From assembly GCF_003018255.1 (NCBI RefSeq), contig NZ_CP027440.1: DNA of 64,000 nt; one strand, 5' to 3'. Made by a program: the position numbers and the translations under genes. Below are positions 3,271-64,000 of the stretch, one piece after another. The stretch comes from Escherichia coli (GTDB taxonomy: Bacteria; Pseudomonadota; Gammaproteobacteria; Enterobacterales; Enterobacteriaceae). Within the stretch, counting starts at the first letter, position 1, and each line of letters starts with the position of its first letter. The notes under the pieces were generated by a model. That model worked only from the letters and a program-made list of their open reading frames with translations, was not told the origin of the DNA and did not search any database.

Positions 3271-3567
3271 TTATACCTCTGAATCAATATCAACCTGATG
3301 GTGAGCAATGGTTTCAACCATGTACCGGATGTGTTCTGCCATGCGCTCCTGAAACTCAACATCGTCATCAAACGCACGGGTAATGGCTTTTTTGCTGGCC
3401 CCGTGGCGTTGCAAATGATCGATACATAGCGATTCAAACAGGTGCTGGGGCAGGCCTTTTTCCATGTTGTCTGCCAGTTCTGCCTCTTTCTCTTCACAGG
3501 CGATCTGCTGGTAGTGACGCGCCCAGCTCTGAGCCTCAAGACGATCCTGAATGTAATAAGCGTTCAT
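3271..3567 (-). CDS. gam: Gam RecBCD inhibitor (98-aa GamS form)
   Basis: [21 protein letters not shown]...[10 protein letters not shown] matches lambda GamS. The upstream extension that gives the 138-aa form in lambda is out of frame and stopped here. Confidence 0.93.
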
Positions 3568-3642
3568 GGCTGAACTCCTGAAAATGGCTGTGAAAATATC
3601 GCCCGCGAAATGCCAGGCTGATTAGGAAAACAGGAAAGGGGA

Positions 3643-3849
3643 TTAGTGATTCAGGCCGTTACCGCGTCCGTCGAGAAAAACTTCCACGAGCAAATCACGG
3701 GTATAAGTGCGCTCGATGCCGCGATGCAGATATAGCCGTCCGCGTAAATTAGCTGATGCAGTCCAGGTACCATCTTTGTGTTTGACCAGCATTCCTGGCA
3801 TGACCGCACCTCGATTAACGGTCTGCGTTCCATAATGTTGATGAACCAT
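3643..3849 (-). CDS. hypothetical 68-aa protein in the kil/cIII position
   Basis: ATG at 3849 is preceded by GGAG at 7 nt. The ORF track extends the frame to a TTG at 4053 (136 aa), and an ATG at 3933 is also possible. No family recognised. Confidence 0.45.
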
Positions 3850-4133
3850 AAAAACTCCTGCCCGTAAGCTGGGCTGCTGAACATATAGAGACTTCTGCGC
3901 GTATTCAGGCGGTGGATGGCCGCCGGTTGTCATAACTAAGCCGCCTCGTTGAAGCGACTGAGGTATGAGGTGTTGAGTTGATTTCAGCTGGTCACACCGA
4001 CGTTCACGCGTCCGTTTCACCCCTCGCACTCCCCGGAGCCTGCCGAAATTCAAGCTGCGGATCTAAGCGGTCATCGCAACGGTGAATCAGGCGGTTGCCG
4101 TATCGTTGTGTTGTTGCGACATGGTAATAATAG

Positions 4134-4174
4134 CTATTGCTATTGGTGGTATCAATACTTATTGCTATTGATTG
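4134..4174. promoter_or_regulatory. candidate left operator (OL) region
   Basis: Contains CTATTGCTATTGG (4134-4146) and TTGCTATTGATTG (4162-4174). The 13-mer TTGCTATTGATTG recurs exactly at 6812-6824 in the cI/cro intergenic region. Confidence 0.5.
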
Positions 4175-4298
4175 ATGTGTTTTGATATTAACTGTTTGAT
4201 AGCAAAAAGAATTAATTTTGTGACTTGCATCGCATAGCGATAACTGAAGGGAGGTTGTGGTGGTTTTTCGAACGGTTTGTGTGATGAGGGGAGGGGAC

Positions 4299-4325
4299 AA
4301 AAGAAAACCCGGCACGGTGGCCGGG
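4299..4325 (-). terminator. rho-independent terminator closing the cI-distal kinase operon
   Basis: On the minus strand: CCCGGC-CACCGT-GCCGGG hairpin followed by TTTTCTTTT, starting 1 nt after the stop of the 54-aa ORF. Confidence 0.7.
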
Positions 4326-4490
4326 CTAGATCTTAAAGTATTTATCTTTTAGAGATGTAGATGCAAAATTTTTTGCCTTTGAAAATTTTTTGTCATCAGA
4401 AGAGCTTATGAACTCATCTTTTTTGTAGGGAACCGCTAATGCTGCATCACGTCTGCGAGGCAGCTTACTTACTTCCTCGCACTTTTTCAT
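4326..4490 (-). CDS. 54-aa Lys/Ser-rich peptide, third gene of the kinase operon (below the ORF-track size cutoff)
   Basis: Hand translation: MKKCEEVSKLPRRRDAALAVPYKKDEFISSSDDKKFSKAKNFASTSLKDKYFKI. The ATG lies 2 nt after the kinase stop (TGATCATG), AAGGA lies 9 nt upstream, and the terminator follows the stop. Confidence 0.45.
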   Translation of the reverse strand: MKKCEEVSKLPRRRDAALAVPYKKDEFISSSDDKKFSKAKNFASTSLKDKYFKI

Positions 4491-4492
4491 GA

Positions 4493-5539
4493 TCAGTTAT
4501 CCTTTAATAACCTATACAGTTTTGTAGGGGTACATCCTGAGGATATTGTTAAGTTCGTAGCACGCCTTTTCCGCCCACCATCGTATAAACGAAAACCAGT
4601 AGTAGACGAATTTTCTGCGTCAAAAACTATAGACAGTATAACGTCCCCAGACTTTTTTTGCCATTCATATGTGCCGTTAGTTGGTTTTGTCATCTGTAGA
4701 CGCCAGTCAAGAACGCCATCACTTATAGCTGAGAGATCGTTTAGTACGTCTAGTACGGATTGATATCTTTCATTTGGATCTACATGAATGCATTTGTTTA
4801 CTATTGTTATCAATTTTTTATGTATGTGGGAAGGATACTCTTTTAATGGATAGGAGCCATTAATTATCGACTCTCTGAGTTGTTCAATCGTTCTAAATGC
4901 AGATCTTTCTCTTTCAAAATTATCATATCCAACACACATTCTATATATGGTTAATCCTGCCTGATATATGTCATATGTGAAATTATAATCATTTGTTGAT
5001 AAAGAAAAATATTCCGGTGGCACATGAAAATGATATCCAAACTCAGGCGCAGCTCTCGATTCCTCATTGACTAACTGAGACAATCCAAAGTCAGATAGCA
5101 TGGCCTCATTTCTGTTTGATATCATGATGTTATTAGGTTTTATATCAAAATGCATAAGACCTTTTGAGTGTATATGATAAAGCCCACTTAAAAATTGAAT
5201 AGAATACCGTATTATCTCCCTGCTCGTAAGATTAATCTTTTTTATTAATTGGTTTAGCGAACCATTATGATAAAATGGCATGGCTATATAGATATTGCTC
5301 TCACATTGAGCAGCATACTGAACTTGCACAATATTTGGATGTGCATGTTTATAGAGAAGCCTTGCTTCATTAAAGTAGTCGTCGTGGTTAGTGTTTTCTT
5401 TTTTTTCTATTTCTTTAATCACCAAGTCATGAGCTAGGTGTCTGTCATGAGCCAGATATACTTTTGAAAAACAACCCTGTTCTTCTAGATCACGAATCCA
5501 TTCGAATGCTACATCAGCTCTTTTGTATGGAGTCAGCAT
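4493..5539 (-). CDS. Hanks-type (eukaryotic-like) Ser/Thr protein kinase with ~80-aa C-terminal extension
   Basis: Motifs in order: LVIK42E (VAIK-like), E58, H130-F-D-I-K-P-N-N (HxDxKxxN catalytic loop), D150-F-G, VPPEY (APE-like). AT-rich. ATGCTGA overlap with the upstream gene. Confidence 0.85.
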   Translation of the reverse strand: MLTPYKRADVAFEWIRDLEEQGCFSKVYLAHDRHLAHDLVIKEIEKKENTNHDDYFNEARLLYKHAHPNIVQVQYAAQCESNIYIAMPFYHNGSLNQLIKKINLTSREIIRYSIQFLSGLYHIHSKGLMHFDIKPNNIMISNRNEAMLSDFGLSQLVNEESRAAPEFGYHFHVPPEYFSLSTNDYNFTYDIYQAGLTIYRMCVGYDNFERERSAFRTIEQLRESIINGSYPLKEYPSHIHKKLITIVNKCIHVDPNERYQSVLDVLNDLSAISDGVLDWRLQMTKPTNGTYEWQKKSGDVILSIVFDAENSSTTGFRLYDGGRKRRATNLTISSGCTPTKLYRLLKDN

Positions 5540-5994
5540 CCCCTTACCTCCGCAGATAGTGCAGCCAAAACAGCTTCATTTGTTTCAGTTGTAAAACCAG
5601 AATTATCGATTCCATTTATATTACGGTGTGACTTCAATATTTCTTTATACTCGATCTCTGTTAGGTTCAATGATGACTTCATACCAGATTTTCTAATGGT
5701 GTAATATCTTCTTACATCACTGCTTGAAAATGCTTCTTGAATAACAGCTTCTATATAAAGGCGGTCAATGCTAAGATTATCAGAGTTTGATTCAGTAACG
5801 CGTATAGCAGCTAATTCAACATTATATAAATTAAGAATGTCGAGGATGTTATTTCGCACATACTTTAATTTTTCTGGTGTGTCTAAGGTCGAAGGTATTT
5901 TAATAACATCAACACATTTGAGTGCAGACTCATCAGTGCAATATACAACAAAAGATGTAACTTTGGGCGCCGCCCTAACACCTAGTATTCTCAT
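5533..5994 (-). CDS. 153-aa protein, first gene of the kinase operon (DUF3010-like, possibly RNase H-like fold, from memory)
   Basis: MRILGVRAAPKV... N-terminus and ...RVTESN..DRLYIEAVIQEAF resemble my recollection of DUF3010. Its stop overlaps the kinase start by 7 nt. Confidence 0.55.
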   Translation of the reverse strand: MRILGVRAAPKVTSFVVYCTDESALKCVDVIKIPSTLDTPEKLKYVRNNILDILNLYNVELAAIRVTESNSDNLSIDRLYIEAVIQEAFSSSDVRRYYTIRKSGMKSSLNLTEIEYKEILKSHRNINGIDNSGFTTETNEAVLAALSAEVRGC

Positions 5995-6074
5995 TTTTTA
6001 TATCCCATTTTAGAATCAGGCTGCGTTTCTGCAGCCTCTCTCATCACCCAAATGTCTAATCAGGCTATTATTGA

Positions 6075-6767
6075 TTATCCATGTTTCCTGTATGTTTGCG
6101 GCATGCTCCCAATAACTTTCCCGAAGATAAACACCCGGTTCATCTCGTCTTTCTCGATTGGGTCCCACGGTGAGTAGCTCTTGTTATCAGAGATAACCAG
6201 CAGTTTATCCTTCATCATTTGCAGGCGCTTAACATGGGCTGTGTCGTCATACAGAAACGCATAGATACCATCACCGTCGAAAGATTTAACAGTGATATCA
6301 ACGAACAGAAGATCACCTGGTTCGATCGTTCCTGACATGCTGTCACCGCGTACGTTAATGATGCGGATATTTTCTGCCTTCCTGCCATCGAACATGTGAC
6401 GAGCATCGTCAAACGAGTACTCAACCGAGCGTAGAACTTCTACAAACTCACGGTTGATGACTCCCGGCCCGGCACTCACTTCTATATCAAGAACGTCAAT
6501 CTTGAAGTATTTGGGATGGTTGGCAGCAGGCTTCCCTGATTGTTGACCGTCATTTCTCATCGGGCCTATGCCTGATGAGAGCCACTCTGTTCGAACACCC
6601 AATGCATTAGCTATTTCAACAATTTTTGTTGAGCCGCGTGCGTTGCCGCTTGTCAGTCTCCAGATTGTGGGTTGAGCTACGCCAGACGCCTTTGCAAGAG
6701 CGCCTTGAGACATTCCAGATTGTTCCATCGCTAGGTTTAAGCGATCAGCAAGAGTTTCTTTTTTCAT
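6075..6767 (-). CDS. cI: CI-type prophage repressor (XRE HTH + S24 LexA-like peptidase)
   Basis: MKKETLADRLN...MSQGALAKASGVAQPTIWRL (HTH), a SAG candidate Ala-Gly cleavage site, GDSMSGTI (Ser) and HVKRL (Lys). Divergent from the cro-like gene. The ORF-track TTG start at 6803 is less likely than the ATG at 6767. Resembles e14 CohE from memory. Confidence 0.85.
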   Translation of the reverse strand: MKKETLADRLNLAMEQSGMSQGALAKASGVAQPTIWRLTSGNARGSTKIVEIANALGVRTEWLSSGIGPMRNDGQQSGKPAANHPKYFKIDVLDIEVSAGPGVINREFVEVLRSVEYSFDDARHMFDGRKAENIRIINVRGDSMSGTIEPGDLLFVDITVKSFDGDGIYAFLYDDTAHVKRLQMMKDKLLVISDNKSYSPWDPIEKDEMNRVFIFGKVIGSMPQTYRKHG

Positions 6768-6809
6768 AAGTTTTAATTTATACGCTTGCGTATTGATGGT
6801 CAAAACACG

Positions 6810-6869
6810 TTTTGCTATTGATTGGGTTAATACGCATTGCTATTATCCATTCATTGTAATACCAATAGG
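6810..6869. promoter_or_regulatory. candidate right operator/PR-PRM region
   Basis: Divergent intergenic region with TTTTGCTATTGATTGG (6810-6825), GCATTGCTATTATCC (6835-6848) and CCAATAGG (6862-6869). It shares a 13-mer with the OL candidate. Confidence 0.5.
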
Positions 6870-6877
6870 AATTGATA

Positions 6878-7105
6878 ATGACAAATCAAACCATTCAACT
6901 CGCAATCAGTATTACAGGTAGCCAAAAACGACTGGCAGATCTATGCGGTGTAGCCCAGCCCACTGTTTGGCGTTGGCTACACGGTGGGGGAATTGATGCC
7001 CGCTATGTAATGAAAATTGTCTCAGCCACTGGTGGAAAGATTAAACCAGCAGATATTCGTCCCGACCTTGCACCATTGTTTAACGCGAGTAATTCTGCCG
7101 CCTAA
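6878..7105 (+). CDS. cro: Cro/YdaS-family HTH regulator
   Basis: 75 aa, GSQKRLADLCGVAQPTVWRWL helix-turn-helix, first gene rightward of the operator region. Confidence 0.7.
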   Translation: MTNQTIQLAISITGSQKRLADLCGVAQPTVWRWLHGGGIDARYVMKIVSATGGKIKPADIRPDLAPLFNASNSAA

Positions 7106-7129
7106 ACTGCGGCGTTAACTGATAAGGCA

Positions 7130-7675
7130 ATGATTATGCAACCACTTACATACCAACAGACTAGCGGATTTAGCCCGACTGCGGTGATAAATCGTTCTCA
7201 AATAAAACAGGTGCCAGGCCACGAAAAAATCCGTGATGCCGTTCGCGCCTGGTCGGCTGCAGATAATCAGGATGTTGTTGCCGCACTCATTGTGAATGAG
7301 TATCGGGAGCAGGGCGGCGGCACCATCGATTTCCCTGATGATGTCAGCCGTGCACGCCAGAAGCTGTTCCGCTTCCTCGATAACAAATTCGATTCTGAAA
7401 AATACCGAAATAACGTGCGTGAACTGACCCCGGCAATTCTGGCGGTACTACCGCTGGAATATCGCGGCCACCTGGTTGAGCAGGATAGCTTCATGGCTCG
7501 GCTGGCTGAAATGGAAAAGGAACTCTGTGAGGCAAAGCAGGCGGTCATTCTCAACGCACCACGCCACCAGAAACTGAAGGAGATGAGTGAAGGCATTGTG
7601 TCGATGTTTCGAGTGGACCCGGATCTGGCTGGTCCATTGATGGCGATGGTCACCACCATGCTGGGGGCAATATGA
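7130..7675 (+). CDS. early regulatory protein in the cII slot (e14 YmfL / YdaT-like, from memory)
   Basis: 181-aa ORF between cro and O. Assigned by position plus a weak recollection of e14/Rac homologues. Confidence 0.5.
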   Translation: MIMQPLTYQQTSGFSPTAVINRSQIKQVPGHEKIRDAVRAWSAADNQDVVAALIVNEYREQGGGTIDFPDDVSRARQKLFRFLDNKFDSEKYRNNVRELTPAILAVLPLEYRGHLVEQDSFMARLAEMEKELCEAKQAVILNAPRHQKLKEMSEGIVSMFRVDPDLAGPLMAMVTTMLGAI

Positions 7676-9755: not shown

Positions 9756-10088
9756 ATGAACCCTTATATTTATCTTGGTGGTGCAATACTTGCAGAGGTC
9801 ATTGGTACAACCTTAATGAAGTTTTCAGAAGGTTTTACACGGTTATGGCCATCTGTTGGTACAATTATTTGTTATTGTGCATCATTCTGGTTATTAGCTC
9901 AGACGCTGGCTTATATTCCTACAGGGATTGCTTATGCTATCTGGTCAGGAGTCGGTATTGTCCTGATTAGCTTACTGTCATGGGGATTTTTCGGCCAACG
10001 GCTGGACCTGCCAGCCATTATAGGCATGATGTTGATTTGTGCCGGTGTGTTGGTTATTAATTTATTGTCACGAAGCACACCACATTAA
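9756..10088 (+). CDS. emrE: small multidrug resistance transporter EmrE
   Basis: 110 aa, MNPYIYLGGAILAEVIGTTLMKFSEGFTRLWPSVGTIICYCASFWLLAQTLAYIPTGIAYAIWSGVG... matches remembered K-12 EmrE (DLP12 prophage). Confidence 0.95.
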   Translation: MNPYIYLGGAILAEVIGTTLMKFSEGFTRLWPSVGTIICYCASFWLLAQTLAYIPTGIAYAIWSGVGIVLISLLSWGFFGQRLDLPAIIGMMLICAGVLVINLLSRSTPH

Positions 10089-10342
10089 AATAATTTGTTT
10101 CTAAACGACTAAAATATGGAGGCTCTTATATTTATATGAGCCTCGTTTTATGCTTTTTGTTAATGTCTTTATTTTTTATGTATTCTTTTGTGCTTTCAAT
10201 ATTATGGCGTAAGAAAATTGCAATACGATTATTGTTGTATATTCAAGATAATGTGACCTTAATTGTCTTTTTAAATAAAAATTAAACAAAAATTATATCC
10301 CACCACTAAGGTTTATAAAAGCATACGTTAGCAGGTGTCACC

Positions 10343-11869
10343 ATGAAAAAAGCCATAGCATATATGCGATTTTCATCACCAGGTCAGATGTCTGGTGACT
10401 CATTAAACCGACAGAGAAGACTTATTGCTGAATGGTTAAAGGTAAATAGTGATTATTATCTTGATACCATAACATATGAAGATTTAGGATTAAGTGCATT
10501 CAAAGGAAAGCATGCACAATCAGGAGCTTTTTCGGAATTTTTAGATGCTATAGAGCATGGTTATATATTGCCAGGAACTACATTGTTAGTTGAAAGTCTG
10601 GACAGACTTTCAAGAGAAAAAGTCGGTGAAGCGATTGAACGTCTGAAATTGATTTTGAATCACGGTATTGATGTTATAACTCTTTGCGACAATACAGTCT
10701 ATAATATTGACTCTTTGAATGAGCCATATTCATTAATAAAAGCCATACTTATAGCACAAAGGGCAAATGAAGAAAGCGAGATAAAGTCAAGTCGGGTTAA
10801 ATTATCATGGAAGAAAAAACGGCAGGATGCACTGGAATCAGGTACGATTATGACGGCGTCTTGTCCGAGATGGCTCTCCTTAGATGACAAAAGAACGGCT
10901 TTTGTTCCAGACCCCGACAGGGTGAAAACTATTGAGCTAATTTTTAAACTCAGGATGGAAAGGCGCTCATTGAATGCAATAGCCAAGTATTTAAATGATC
11001 ATGCTGTAAAGAATTTCTCAGGAAAAGAAAGTGCATGGGGACCTTCTGTAATTGAAAAATTATTAGCGAATAAAGCTCTGATAGGTATATGCGTACCTTC
11101 ATATCGTGCAAGAGGGAAAGGGATAAGTGAAATCGCTGGCTATTATCCCAGAGTCATATCAGATGATTTGTTTTACGCTGTACAGGAAATTCGGTTGGCA
11201 CCTTTTGGTATTAGCAATAGTAGCAAGAATCCTATGCTAATAAATCTACTTCGAACAGTTATGAAGTGTGAGGCTTGTGGTAATACCATGATTGTTCATG
11301 CGGTATCTGGAAGTTTGCATGGCTATTATGTTTGTCCGATGAGAAGATTACATCGATGTGACAGGCCATCAATAAAAAGAGATTTGGTTGATTATAATAT
11401 CATTAATGAATTGCTTTTTAATTGTAGCAAAATTCAACCAGTTGAAAACAAGAAAGATGCTAATGAAACTTTAGAGTTAAAAATTATTGAGCTTCAGATG
11501 AAAATTAATAATTTAATCGTTGCATTGTCTGTCGCGCCTGAAGTTACCGCTATAGCAGAGAAAATAAGACTATTAGATAAGGAATTAAGAAGGGCTTCGG
11601 TATCATTGAAAACTTTGAAGAGTAAAGGTGTAAATTCATTCAGTGATTTTTATGCTATTGACTTAACCAGTAAAAATGGACGAGAGTTATGCCGTACACT
11701 TGCCTATAAAACATTCGAAAAAATCATAATTAATACGGATAATAAAACCTGTGATATCTATTTTATGAATGGCATTGTTTTTAAACACTATCCTTTAATG
11801 AAAGTAATATCCGCCCAGCAGGCGATAAGTGCTCTCAAATATATGGTTGATGGTGAGATTTATTTCTAA
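10343..11869 (+). CDS. ybcK: large serine recombinase (DLP12 YbcK-like)
   Basis: 508 aa. The N-terminal resolvase domain has AYMRFSSPGQ (catalytic Ser) and ...LLVESLDRLSR. A Cys-rich zinc-ribbon (CEACGN...CPMRRLHRC) and a coiled-coil tail follow. Same length as K-12 YbcK. Confidence 0.9.
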   Translation: MKKAIAYMRFSSPGQMSGDSLNRQRRLIAEWLKVNSDYYLDTITYEDLGLSAFKGKHAQSGAFSEFLDAIEHGYILPGTTLLVESLDRLSREKVGEAIERLKLILNHGIDVITLCDNTVYNIDSLNEPYSLIKAILIAQRANEESEIKSSRVKLSWKKKRQDALESGTIMTASCPRWLSLDDKRTAFVPDPDRVKTIELIFKLRMERRSLNAIAKYLNDHAVKNFSGKESAWGPSVIEKLLANKALIGICVPSYRARGKGISEIAGYYPRVISDDLFYAVQEIRLAPFGISNSSKNPMLINLLRTVMKCEACGNTMIVHAVSGSLHGYYVCPMRRLHRCDRPSIKRDLVDYNIINELLFNCSKIQPVENKKDANETLELKIIELQMKINNLIVALSVAPEVTAIAEKIRLLDKELRRASVSLKTLKSKGVNSFSDFYAIDLTSKNGRELCRTLAYKTFEKIIINTDNKTCDIYFMNGIVFKHYPLMKVISAQQAISALKYMVDGEIYF

Positions 11870-39778: not shown

Positions 39779-40362
39779 TGGCATTCAGAATGAGTGAACA
39801 ACCACGGACCATAAAAATTTATAATCTGCTGGCCGGAACTAATGAATTTATTGGTGAAGGTGACGCATATATTCCGCCTCATACAGGTCTGCCAGCAAAC
39901 AGTACCTATATTGCACCGCCAGATATTCCGGCTGGCTTCGTGGCTGTTTTCAACAGTGATGAGGCATCGTGGCATCTCGTTGAAGATCATCGGGGTAAAA
40001 CGGTTTATGACGTGGCTTCCGGCGACGCGTTATTTATTTCTGAACTCGGCTCATTACCGGAAAATGTCACCTGGTTATCCCCGGAAGGGGAGTTTCAGAA
40101 GTGGAACGGCACAGCCTGGGTGAAAGATGCAGAAGCAGAAAAACTATTCCGGATCCGGGAGGCGGAAGAAACAAAAAACAGCCTGATGCAGGCAGCGAAT
40201 GAGCATATTGCGCCACTTCAGGATGCTGTGGATCTGGAGATCGCAACGGAAGAAGAGGCGTCGTTGCTGGCAGCATGGAAGAAGTATCGGGTGTTGCTGA
40301 ACCGTGTTGATACATCAGTAGCACCGGATATTGAGTGGCCTGCTGTCCCTGTTATGGAGTAA
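39778..40362 (+). CDS. tfa: tail fibre assembly chaperone Tfa
   Basis: 194 aa, [43 protein letters not shown]...EWPAVPVME = lambda Tfa. Confidence 0.95.
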
Positions 40363-63502: not shown

Positions 63503-64000
63503 TCAGACTTCAGGTACCTCAAAGAGTGTCTTTTTACCGTGTCTTTTCTGATACTCATTACAGGTGTTAATCATTTTTTTGGCCGCTTCTTTTAGCAAAG
63601 AAAGCATTAAATCATCATAATCAACATAGAATCTGGTTGTTTCAGTTTCCGTTTTTATCTCCCCGATGGCGGCTATTTCGGTGGTTAATTTCAATTTGGC
63701 GGCATCGATATCTTTATTCGCTTGTTTAACCGTGTTAGACAGGGTGGTAAAGAAACTCTGCACAGATTTTAACTTGTTCTTCAATTCTGGAATCAGTTTC
63801 CCTTCAACTACGCCCGCTGCAACAGAATACAGTTTCTTGATGCCGTCATCCAGTACCTTAATGAGAATGCCTTTCTGGGCGAATGCTTCTATTCTATTTT
63901 TTAGCCGGGCGATATTTTTCATTTCTGCTGGATGAGCGTCGTCGCCAGAAGGCCACGTGAGCACAGGATAAGAGAACGAAAAATCAGCAGTCTATGCAGC
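63503..64000 (-). pseudogene. hlyE: hemolysin E / cytolysin A remnant with internal deletion and upstream disruption
   Basis: The C-terminal 108 aa match remembered ClyA (Y196 onward, ...GKLIPELKNKLKSVQ...KKTLFEVPEV). Upstream, ...AQKGILIKVLDDGIKKL joins directly to YSVAAGVVEGK, so residues ~128-195 (about 204 bp) are missing. The frame hits a TAG about 10 codons upstream of 63964. Confidence 0.8.

Follow-up and report, generated by a model that had tools for sequence, protein, structure and literature searches.

An allele of the 933W stk operon behind the cI repressor of a 4A7-like Escherichia coli prophage, and the two small genes conserved with its kinase

Introduction

Stk, encoded by the Stx phage 933W, is among the first kinase-based abortive-infection effectors to have been described. 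According to three sources, the kinase is expressed by the prophage with little or no activity in the absence of infection, and it is infection by HK97 that activates it and leads to the exclusion of this phage by abortive infection (PMC3681748, PMC6356687, PMC8008677). Another source, citing Tyler et al. 2004, states that stk is co-transcribed with cI from PRM (PMC3564112). The 153-aa protein encoded beside the kinase has been detected in lysogens of phi24B, where its expression is restricted to the lysogen (PMC3342100, PMC4651098). Riley et al. 2012 reported that the two genes next to cI on its downstream side reach levels far above those of cI. Both the GenBank record of 933W (AF125520) and its RefSeq copy (NC_000924) annotate three ORFs (L0083, stk, and L0081) followed by a terminator (tM).

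Two other types of systems are close to this locus, one by position and the other by its effector. RexA and RexB of lambda are likewise accessory exclusion genes: they follow cI on the PRM transcript, precede the terminator immediately ahead of OL, are expressed in the lysogen, and abort infection by other phages (PMC3564112). PD-T4-6 and Stk2 share with Stk the use of a Hanks-type kinase as the abortive-infection effector, and both have been described as single genes.

Results and Discussion

An allele of the 933W operon

We analyzed a window of 64,000 nucleotides of E. coli contig NZ_CP027440.1, in which a first reading made from the sequence only had pointed to a compact kinase operon directly downstream of a cI-type repressor. 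The three tightly coupled ORFs of 153, 348, and 54 aa (here gene 1, stk, and gene 3) were found, from the ORFs and the sequence itself, exactly where that reading had placed them (Table 1). The first two overlap by ATGCTGA and the third begins 2 nt past the stop of stk. The cassette is AT-rich, with a GC content of 36% compared to 47% in the window as a whole, and ends in the clean terminator that had been noticed (stem 4327-4306 followed by a T-run), with a folding energy of -15.9 kcal/mol (z = -3.0), which is the sole terminator-like site within 3900-7200. The hairpin seen between cI and gene 1 indeed lacks a T-run; 933W has kept it, with a compensatory change in one pair. A search of the minus strand from 5995 to 6075 gave no promoter-like site for gene 1, and there was no Rfam match in or near the cassette. 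The resulting order, PRM-cI-hairpin-three genes-terminator-OL, reproduces the lambda arrangement cI-rexA-rexB-tImm-OL that the sequence-only reading had recognized.

Table 1. Features of the cassette and of the surrounding immunity region (coordinates within the window)
Feature	Coordinates	Strand	Remarks
OR/PRM/PR control region	6775..6860	.	Promoter and operator-repeat search, sequence read
cI-type repressor, 230 aa	6075..6767	-	ATG at 6767, as used by PGAP
Mobile cassette: hairpin, three genes, and terminator	4300..6057	-	Common to 933W-type Stx phages, 96.9% nt identity
Hairpin in the cI-gene 1 gap	6018..6037	-	Without T-run; within the shared cassette
Gene 1 (933W L0083, phi24B "res")	5533..5994	-	153 aa, predicted RuvC fold
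stk	4493..5539	-	348-aa Hanks-type kinase, non-RD type (HFD)
Gene 3 (933W L0081)	4326..4490	-	54 aa, basic
Intrinsic terminator, counterpart of 933W tM	4299..4327	-	Stop codon of gene 3 inside the stem
OL operators, overlapping a pL-like promoter	4125..4175	.	AATAGCAA at 4137-4144 and 4162-4169

When compared to 933W, positions 4300-6057 aligned with NC_000924 9911-11666 at 96.9% nucleotide identity, collinear over all three genes and the terminator. The proteins differ from those of 933W at 2 of 153 residues (gene 1), 11 of 348 (Stk), and 4 of 54 (gene 3), 17 in all, and none of the changes in Stk falls in a catalytic motif. As in 933W and phi24B, the three genes with their hairpin and terminator lie on the cI strand, behind cI and before OL/pL, and the kinase motifs are intact. 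The comparison identifies the cassette as an allele of the 933W L0083-stk-L0081-tM operon and not merely as something similar to the 933W locus. The first reading had left room for a new locus, while granting that identity to a characterized one would take the novelty away. Since the operon of 933W is characterized and 97% identical, the locus was already known and most of this novelty is gone; a kinase defense in the rex slot is also already known. On the other hand, the expression in the lysogen that had been predicted is documented for the ~97%-identical cassette of 933W and phi24B (PMC3564112, PMC3342100, PMC4651098), and 933W Stk, named there as an abortive-infection kinase acting against HK97, is reported as such in PMC3681748 and PMC6356687.

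Among 5,426 complete genomes of E. coli, 224 contained the same block, and 222 of these carriers have it whole. The likeness to Rex is positional only: no Rex domains were found by Pfam at E <= 1 in any of the three proteins, Rex has two genes and the cassette three, and the effector, which is a membrane channel in lambda, is a protein kinase here.

The surrounding prophage differs from 933W

In contrast to the cassette, what surrounds it is not that of 933W. The repressor expected upstream of the cassette carries the HTH and S24 peptidase domains of cI-type proteins (Pfam) and is 99% identical to the cI of the lambda-like phage 4A7, whereas the match to 933W cI was only 26% identity over 65 aa, so that the repressor and operators of the window are, on sequence grounds, of a different immunity type. 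In 933W, moreover, a DUF3024 gene (PADLOC PDC-S43) separates cI from the cassette, a gene absent in the window, and the prophage that hosts the cassette here is not an Stx phage. In phage 4A7 the rex slot holds a different cargo behind the same cI backbone.

The operator-like repeat AATAGCAA occurs in five copies in the window, four of which form two pairs with a spacing of 25 bp, one at OL (4137-4169) and the other at OR (6812-6844, with cores at 6812-6819 and 6837-6844). The first pair agrees with the operators that had been expected about 125 nt beyond the terminator, and OL also contains the palindrome ATCAATAGCAATAAGTATTGAT at 4151-4172 and a pL-like promoter on the minus strand (4155-4127). 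At OR, a PR-like promoter is found on the plus strand (6818-6846) and a PRM-like promoter, TTGACC-17-TAAATT, on the minus strand (6803-6775); the latter would initiate at about the ATG of cI and give a leaderless mRNA. We had also considered that the prophage might be decaying, as the N gene is missing between pL and kil. This was dropped because the genome of 4A7, deposited as that of a complete phage and sharing this backbone, has no annotated N there either.

The kinase

The product of stk matched the Pfam Pkinase domain (PF00069) with an E value of 1.2e-46 and 159.7 bits, compared to a cut-off of 31.7 bits. Every catalytic motif listed in the sequence-only reading was found in place: K42 (VIK), E58, HFDIKPNN at 130-137, DFG at 150-152, and PPEY at 174. 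Among 118 aligned family members, at least 90% share Tyr at position 169, within the activation loop, making it the majority residue there. The Ser/Thr label that had been attached to the protein does not agree with the literature, as PMC3681748 reports 933W Stk as a tyrosine kinase and Tyler and Friedman 2004 call it so in their title (listed in PMC3430580). Residues ~273-348 form a C-terminal domain made of a beta-meander plus a helix, for which no confident fold match was obtained. The dN/dS of the gene is ~0.08.

It had been suggested that the kinase be compared with PD-T4-6 using defense-finding tools. The PADLOC models for PD-T4-6 do match Stk (best E value of 1.5e-36, 124.6 bits), as does the model for mad6, but the PD-T4-6 match spans residues ~20-275, that is, the kinase domain only, and is a generic one. 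These matches would fit another explanation, namely that Stk is a complete single-gene defense like PD-T4-6, as annotated, and that the 153-aa and 54-aa genes are passengers on its transcript. In the same direction, purified recombinant Stk is said to be active by itself and to autophosphorylate in vitro, and a plasmid-borne stk was reportedly used to show the exclusion of HK97; if stk was indeed alone on that plasmid, exclusion of this phage, at least, does not require the partners. The literature covered also names Stk alone (PMC3681748, PMC8008677).

A three-gene neighborhood conserved across phyla

The distribution of the genes makes us regard the passenger explanation as unlikely. The gene 1 homologue was directly followed by a Stk-family kinase at 58 of the 59 species-level genome loci and on 73 of the 74 viral contigs, and in the two exceptions the sequence ends at a contig end. 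The pair spans alpha-, beta-, and gammaproteobacteria, cyanobacteria, and one myxobacterium. After the kinase, a basic ORF of ~50 to 70 aa was present in all 56 testable loci, compared to 28% at random positions, and an ORF of this kind carrying both motifs (the Arg and the C-terminal aromatic one) in 54 of the 56, compared to 1.9%. Wherever the junction was checked, the start of one gene overlaps or abuts the other by 1 to 8 nt, and all three genes are under purifying selection. Of the 449 family representatives, the best 150 included none with the length needed for a fusion of gene 1 to a kinase, and a gene 1 homologue without the kinase was never seen where sequence was available. Thus, while PD-T4-6 and Stk2 are described as single genes, the Stk-family kinase has a conserved C-terminal domain of its own and is flanked by both partners in essentially all loci. 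The idea, raised from the tight coupling alone, that both small genes belong with the kinase is borne out by this near-universal co-occurrence across phyla. A survey of 100 flanking genes revealed no consistent fourth partner.

Nor is the association restricted to one genomic setting. The pair was also located outside immunity regions, in a Pseudomonas island together with Abi_2 and an integrase, in the tail region of an Acinetobacter prophage, and beside a type I restriction-modification system of Vibrio. The variety of mobile contexts (prophages, integrase islands, and Tn7-like TniQ neighborhoods) would also suit a toxin-antitoxin-like addiction or stress cassette, in which the kinase would be the toxin and one of its two neighbors (gene 1 or gene 3) the antitoxin, mainly stabilizing the prophage or island, with exclusion as a side effect. 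A compact, translationally coupled operon with a small basic protein beside a potentially toxic enzyme has this appearance, and Stk is reported to be silent until triggered (PMC3681748). We nevertheless judge it quite improbable, considering that there are three conserved components and not two, that Pfam detects no DNA-binding antitoxin domain in either small protein, and that the reported trigger is a specific phage, HK97, and the reported phenotype abortive infection (PMC3681748, PMC6356687). Even so, this explanation and a three-component defense are not mutually exclusive.

The same distribution bears on a role of the eukaryote-like kinase in lysogenic conversion or virulence, directed at an animal host or at host-cell physiology and not at phages. 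Its carriage by Stx phages of EHEC might suggest such a role, but the E. coli that carry the allele of the window are non-Stx and come from water, livestock, and wildlife, and the module extends to Methylobacterium, cyanobacteria, marine gammaproteobacteria, and other groups, which leaves this explanation with hardly any credibility.

Among the papers searched, we found none that assigns a role to the two neighbors of Stk, and no relevant description of a RuvC-plus-kinase system or follow-up of PD-T4-6. As far as can be judged from the genomes compared, the conservation of both small genes with the kinase across phyla is the new part of this analysis.

Gene 1, a probable pseudo-nuclease

The 153-aa protein is predicted to adopt an RNase H-like (RuvC) fold over its whole length, as the sequence-only reading had guessed. 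The likeness to DUF3010 also proposed there was not supported, as Pfam gave no DUF3010 match at E <= 1. Similarity to RuvC itself is low at the sequence level: the Pfam RuvC profile (PF02075) scored 13.6 bits against a cut-off of 22.2 bits (E = 0.062), and a profile search of PDB sequences with the gene 1 family recovered no RuvC, only noise. A local full-length hhalign comparison was weak (probability 8%, P = 0.004), although collinear and in agreement with the partial Pfam alignment.

These alignments allow the catalytic tetrad of E. coli RuvC (D7, E66, D138, and D141) to be tentatively mapped, by weak profile alignments and fold similarity, onto R7, R65, a gap, and E140, respectively. R7 was placed at the catalytic Asp by three alignments; 120 of the 121 family representatives have it, and all 121 have R/K65. 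The remaining near-invariant residues are R47, E68, R78, E82, E87, and E140. The gene is under purifying selection (dN/dS of 0.04 to 0.10). RuvC folds without nuclease activity have precedents in TEFM and in the YqgF-like domain of Tex/Spt6. On this evidence, gene 1 probably encodes a pseudo-nuclease that partners the kinase, although it may have a non-canonical active site, because E68, E82, E87, and E140 are near-invariant.

The names given to the protein ("res," "RuvC-like Holliday junction resolvase") imply instead an active resolvase involved in phage recombination or serving as a DNA-cutting effector. Several observations argue against it: the sub-threshold RuvC score, near-invariant Arg at the D7 and E66 positions and no counterpart of D138, an acidic to neutral protein (pI 5.9, with mildly acidic family medians of 5.5 to 6.3), expression in the lysogen and not alongside lytic recombination genes (PMC3342100, PMC4651098), and the constant pairing with the kinase even outside phages. 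We find an active resolvase very doubtful.

Gene 3, a small gene missed by annotation

PGAP leaves gene 3 unannotated in this allele, and it had been found by hand. That it is a real gene is supported both by its dN/dS of ~0.2 at a dS of ~0.9 to 1.0, which indicates purifying selection, and by the positional homologue in every testable locus. The protein has a pI of 9.8 and ends in the aromatic motif KYFKI. An HMM derived from small proteins outside the enterics missed it among the six-frame ORFs of the window; in a profile-profile comparison (hhalign) with the wider small-protein family, the P value was 0.006. Its homology to that family is only suggestive.

A proposed mechanism for the module

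Taken as a whole, we consider it likely that the cassette is a three-component abortive-infection module, the 933W stk allele, which occupies the cI-to-pL slot of a 4A7-like lambdoid prophage as interchangeable cargo. Expression, kinase activity, and defense are carried over to this allele by inference from 933W and phi24B. Following these two phages, the cassette would be transcribed in the lysogen by read-through from PRM behind cI, ending at its own terminator. Stk would be the effector, nearly silent without infection, until a superinfecting phage (HK97 in the case of 933W) turned the kinase on; it would then phosphorylate host proteins and the infection would be aborted, as the 97% identity and the intact motifs lead us to expect.

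What we add to this scheme is that Stk would provide the catalytic subunit in a module of three conserved genes. Gene 1, translationally coupled and mildly acidic, appears to have lost most of the acidic metal-binding residues, two of them replaced by near-invariant Arg, and would most likely be a regulatory or sensing subunit and not a resolvase. Gene 3, a basic micro-protein of ~55 aa with its Arg and aromatic motifs, would most likely restrain or target the kinase, perhaps as a labile inhibitor or by serving as a pseudosubstrate. For gene 1 and gene 3 alike, the particular role named here is a guess that we would expect to miss more often than to hit.

There is about as much reason to accept as to doubt a broader proposal, by which the locus of the window would represent a widespread, undescribed three-gene immune module composed of a RuvC-fold pseudo-nuclease as sensor or regulator, a non-RD Hanks kinase that has a C-terminal beta-meander domain, and a gating micro-protein of ~55 aa. 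It would behave as a self-contained cassette moving between prophage immunity regions, moron sites in tail regions, transposons, and defense islands of Proteobacteria, cyanobacteria, and myxobacteria.

The locus itself, whose kinase has been characterized, is a textbook-style case of exclusion genes that the lysogen expresses from the rex slot; the partners are what makes it of value. Current defense finders would call the system a generic single-gene kinase (PD-T4-6), and automated annotation overlooked one of its conserved small genes in this allele. With the two partners considered, an old single-gene story would become a testable three-component system, and the question it raises is how an inactivated resolvase fold and a micro-protein might couple phage infection to the activation of a kinase.

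Identity with the 933W stk operon and genomic context

Comparison with phage genomes indicates that this locus is an already known one, an allele of the stk operon of the Stx phage 933W set in a new immunity backbone. The cassette (4300-6057) is 96.9% identical to positions 9911-11666 of 933W (NC_000924), and more than 50 further Stx-phage records match it likewise. In 933W-type records the block is annotated as L0083 (gene 1, "RuvC-like"; "res" in phi24B), stk, L0081 (the 54-aa ORF) and tM, the putative terminator of the PRM transcript. The products differ from those of 933W at 2 of 153 (gene 1), 11 of 348 (Stk) and 4 of 54 (gene 3) amino acids, and the catalytic motifs are untouched. Homology to 933W runs from 18 nt past the cI stop codon to the terminator end, and the 933W cI is unrelated to the repressor found here (26% identity over 65 aa). 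In contrast, the lambda-like phage 4A7 and its relatives have a cI that is 99% identical, and 4A7 also shares cro, the replication genes and the kil-gam-bet arm, but its slot carries a 353-aa hypothetical protein and an ASCH-domain protein instead of the kinase cassette. The cI-pL slot is a hotspot for cargo genes, and the two genes of 4A7 may encode a further exclusion system. The sharp ends of homology, the dissimilar repressors and the different cargo of 4A7 show that the cassette is a self-contained mosaic module moving between lambdoid backbones.

Unlike the window, 933W has an additional DUF3024 gene, matching the PADLOC defense candidate PDC-S43, between cI and the cassette. It occupies the same interval in phi24B, and in Proteus penneri and Erwinia aphidicola it lies directly 5' of the cassette. 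It could be either an optional fourth member of the cassette or a system of its own.

Among 5,426 complete E. coli genomes, 224 carried the cassette, whole in 222 of them. Two alleles were distinguished, that of the window (at least 99% identity, 29 of 225 matching records) and that of 933W (about 96.9%, some 195 records). Twenty-nine genomes, of human, livestock, wildlife and water origin, had the exact combination of cI and cassette, in a prophage whose integration site adjoins icd. The match was split in two in NZ_CP051219 (SFE8) and NZ_CP031916 (FWSEC0003) (hits H46, H56 and H77), where an IS3-family transposase is annotated under the match and may have disrupted the cassette.

Organization of the cassette and its control region

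Features of the cassette, its control region and compared loci (window coordinates unless a locus is named)
Feature	Location	Strand	Basis or remark
Gene 1, 153-aa ORF	5533-5994	-	ORF calling
Gene 2 (stk kinase), 348-aa ORF	4493-5539	-	ORF calling
Gene 3, 54-aa ORF	4326-4490	-	ORF calling
Terminator stem and T-run	4327-4306		Sole terminator-like site within 3900-7200
Hairpin without T-run	6018-6037		Sequence reading and folding
cI-type repressor	5' of cassette		Pfam; HTH and S24 peptidase domains
Operator pair OR	6812-6844		AATAGCAA repeats, 25 bp apart
Operator pair OL	4137-4169		AATAGCAA repeats, 25 bp apart
pL-like promoter	4155-4127		Promoter prediction
PRM-like promoter	6803-6775		Would yield leaderless cI mRNA
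4A7 cargo slot	L154 (phage 4A7, NC_049946) 3774-5190		Counterpart of window 4300-6074
DUF3024 gene	L001 (933W) 2653-2994; L018 (a compared locus) 3555-3893; L079 (Erwinia aphidicola) 2519-2860		

Genes 1 and 2 overlap by ATGCTGA, and 2 nt separate the stop of the kinase gene from the start of gene 3. The terminator stem has a folding energy of -15.9 kcal/mol (z = -3.0), and the cassette has a GC content of 36% versus 47% for the window. The repeat AATAGCAA occurs five times across the 64 kb, four of the copies forming two pairs with 25-bp spacing, and the cI start assigned by PGAP is the ATG at 6767. The operator pairs, the PRM-like and pL-like promoters and the terminator therefore make the lambda-like order of PRM, cI, accessory genes, terminator and OL/pL real. 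This layout had been proposed in the sequence-only reading together with the three ORFs, their overlap and 2-nt gap, the terminator, the hairpin, the AT richness and an intact set of kinase motifs, all of which were recovered here.

The hairpin between cI and gene 1 is also present in 933W, where one T-A pair is replaced by C-G (a compensatory change) and one G-C pair by G-U. The Enterobacter lignolyticus and Proteus copies have hairpins at the same site that are unrelated to it. The window's hairpin could serve in RNA processing or stability, and this might account for the transcript level of the genes 3' of cI, which was far above that of cI itself (Riley et al. 2012). The ca. 280 nt between the pL-like promoter and the kil homologue at 3643-3849 (3849-4127) contained only an 11-codon ORF, with no gene for an N-type antiterminator and no Rfam match. 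Phage 4A7 has the same N-less layout, so this group may use another antitermination device. Two Rfam models scored above their gathering thresholds elsewhere in the window, IS009 (203 bits, 40121-40319) and the 5' part of the sRNA C0299 at the window end (63952-64000), both unrelated to the cassette.

The Stk kinase and its published activity

The kinase matches Pfam Pkinase (E = 1.2e-46) and has K42, E58, HFDIKPNN (130-137), DFG (150-152) and PPEY (174), a catalytic core conserved throughout 118 aligned sequences (this Stk plus 117 family members). The family is of the non-RD type (HFD). At position 169, in the activation loop, Tyr is the majority residue (at least 90% of the 118 sequences), a pattern that fits tyrosine autophosphorylation without proving it. 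Residues ca. 273 to 348 form a domain of conserved length that starts with LDW and is modeled from 31 sequences (pLDDT of 84.8) as a five-strand meander followed by a C-terminal helix. The PADLOC models PD-T4-6 and mad6 match only the generic kinase domain, and a gene that all analyzed S. thermophilus genomes possess, with very mild resistance, is called by the PD-T4-6 models as well; the PD-T4-6 label therefore says little about relationship.

Three papers that cite the primary work (PMC3681748, PMC6356687 and PMC8008677) describe 933W Stk as a eukaryote-like tyrosine kinase expressed by the prophage, with little or no activity in uninfected cells, that is activated by HK97 infection and then mediates exclusion. 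Tyler et al. 2004, as cited in PMC3564112, is the source for cotranscription of stk and cI from PRM. The 153-aa and DUF3024 proteins were detected by 2D-PAGE in phi24B lysogens, and their genes had lysogen-restricted qPCR profiles (PMC3342100). Transcriptome sequencing grouped cI, stk and res with genes that are not switched on together with the lytic ones (PMC4651098). In PMC3342100, spot P2 (17.1 kDa) is 933W p23 and P3 (13.5 kDa) is p24 in Table 2, with the accessions swapped in Table 3; the mass identifies P2 as the 153-aa protein.

The lysogenic expression and abortive-infection kinase expected from the sequence alone are thus documented for the nearly identical cassette of 933W and phi24B and, by analogy, would hold here. 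The "Ser/Thr" label was inexact, since tyrosine is the reported target of the enzyme. The locus also loses its novelty, as the sequence-only reading had itself allowed for identity with a characterized cassette.

A three-gene architecture across phyla

Homologues of gene 1 (75 clusters) came mostly from Enterobacterales, with a few distant ones such as Terasakiella. An HMM search of 1.84 billion representatives extended this to 449 clusters at E ≤ 0.001 (251 at E ≤ 1e-10), nearly all stand-alone proteins of 150 to 175 aa, and no sequence among the best 150 of the 449 clusters was long enough for a fusion to the kinase. In Klebsiella, Proteus, Terasakiella, Pseudomonas, Acinetobacter and Vibrio, homologues with 40 to 69% identity lie directly 5' of a kinase gene of the Stk family, and the two genes overlap or adjoin within a few nucleotides. 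The contexts are as different as unrelated 5' repressors, an integrase island that also carries Abi_2, the tail region of a prophage and the vicinity of a type I restriction-modification system. At the species level, 59 loci were found in alpha-, beta- and gammaproteobacteria, cyanobacteria and one Polyangium MAG. A kinase or kinase fragment was immediately downstream on the same strand in 58, the exception being a 1.1-kb contig that ends there; in IMG/VR the figure was 73 of 74, again with a contig end as the exception. The genes flanking the trio are heterogeneous (S24 repressors, integrases, TniQ, transposases and tail genes), with scattered defense genes (dGTPase, Old, AbiJ, AriA, SAVED-HNH and restriction enzymes), surroundings typical of mobile defense cargo. 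No fourth partner appeared in this survey of flanking genes.

All 56 loci with enough sequence had an ORF of ca. 50 to 70 aa whose start lay no more than a few nucleotides from the kinase stop, compared to 28% of random positions. Of the 56, 54 combined an N-terminal Arg motif with a C-terminal aromatic one (1.9% at random positions). Most of these peptides form one alignable family (K-I/V-K-N-D..Y..R-S..L near the N terminus, D-F...I-D..F-Y..F near the C terminus). The enterobacterial versions are divergent (PRRRDAALAxPY ... KYFKI) and were not detected by an HMM built from the other members, but profile-profile alignment of the two was collinear (P = 0.006), and intermediates occur among viral contigs. 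Against the Enterobacter lignolyticus copy, a dN/dS of ca. 0.2 (dS of ca. 0.9 to 1.0) indicates purifying selection on the 54-aa ORF within the E. coli clade. The ORF has no RefSeq/PGAP gene in the window's allele (L077, NZ_AP045067) and is annotated in 933W-type records. The C-terminal aromatic residue, read by eye in a 47-member alignment, is Tyr in ca. 80% and Phe or His in most others, a pattern that would suit a docking or pseudosubstrate role. In Erwinia aphidicola (L079, 4505-4648) the gene has only 47 codons owing to a one-base length change in an A-run, and the ending KNKYFKL is legible in another frame, reflecting either a sequencing error or phase-variable-like slippage.

Gene 1 as a putative pseudo-nuclease

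The 153-aa protein was modeled by AlphaFold with a pLDDT of 90.8 (37-sequence alignment) and scored 13.6 bits against Pfam RuvC, under the 22.2-bit threshold. Three independent alignments (the partial Pfam match, hhalign against E. coli RuvC and full-length local hhalign against 104 RuvC sequences) placed R7 where RuvC has its first catalytic aspartate. In the full-length one (P = 0.004, 141 columns), the RuvC tetrad D7/E66/D138/D141 corresponds to R7/R65/gap/E140. Among 121 representatives, one per 50%-identity cluster, G5, R47, R78, E82 and E87 do not vary, R7 occurs in 120 and E68 in 119, position 65 is R or K throughout, and position 140 holds only E or D. With a pI of 5.9 (family medians of 5.5 to 6.3), the protein is mildly acidic. 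This pseudo-nuclease reading combines weak sequence alignments with fold similarity. Within it, the apparent loss of metal-binding acids, the strictly conserved charged constellation and lysogenic expression beside a kinase argue that a resolvase fold was repurposed as a regulatory or sensing subunit, and the protein is probably not the Holliday junction resolvase named by annotations.

Proposed mechanism

It seems to us highly probable that the cassette works as an exclusion module of the Stk type. In the lysogen it would be read from PRM, as reported for 933W-type phages; Stk would stay nearly silent until activated by a superinfecting phage, and its kinase activity would then abort the infection, as reported elsewhere. 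We consider it likely, with somewhat less assurance, that the three genes are one functional system, and the comparison suggests a unit of three proteins with coupled production. The main caveat for this three-gene model is that the original stk work reportedly used stk alone on plasmids. In the literature searched we found no role assigned to gene 1 or gene 3, and the specific roles that follow are tentative guesses, each rather doubtful. The RuvC-fold pseudo-nuclease might bind Stk, perhaps via its C-terminal domain, and couple it to an infection cue, while the basic micro-protein might restrain or direct the kinase. The earlier interpretation is partly supported: a lysogen-expressed abortive-infection kinase is likely here, the Ser/Thr label is inexact, and the locus is an allele of the 933W operon. 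The remaining interest lies in a previously undescribed three-gene architecture that spans phyla and in its putative pseudo-RuvC partner, both of which are directly testable.
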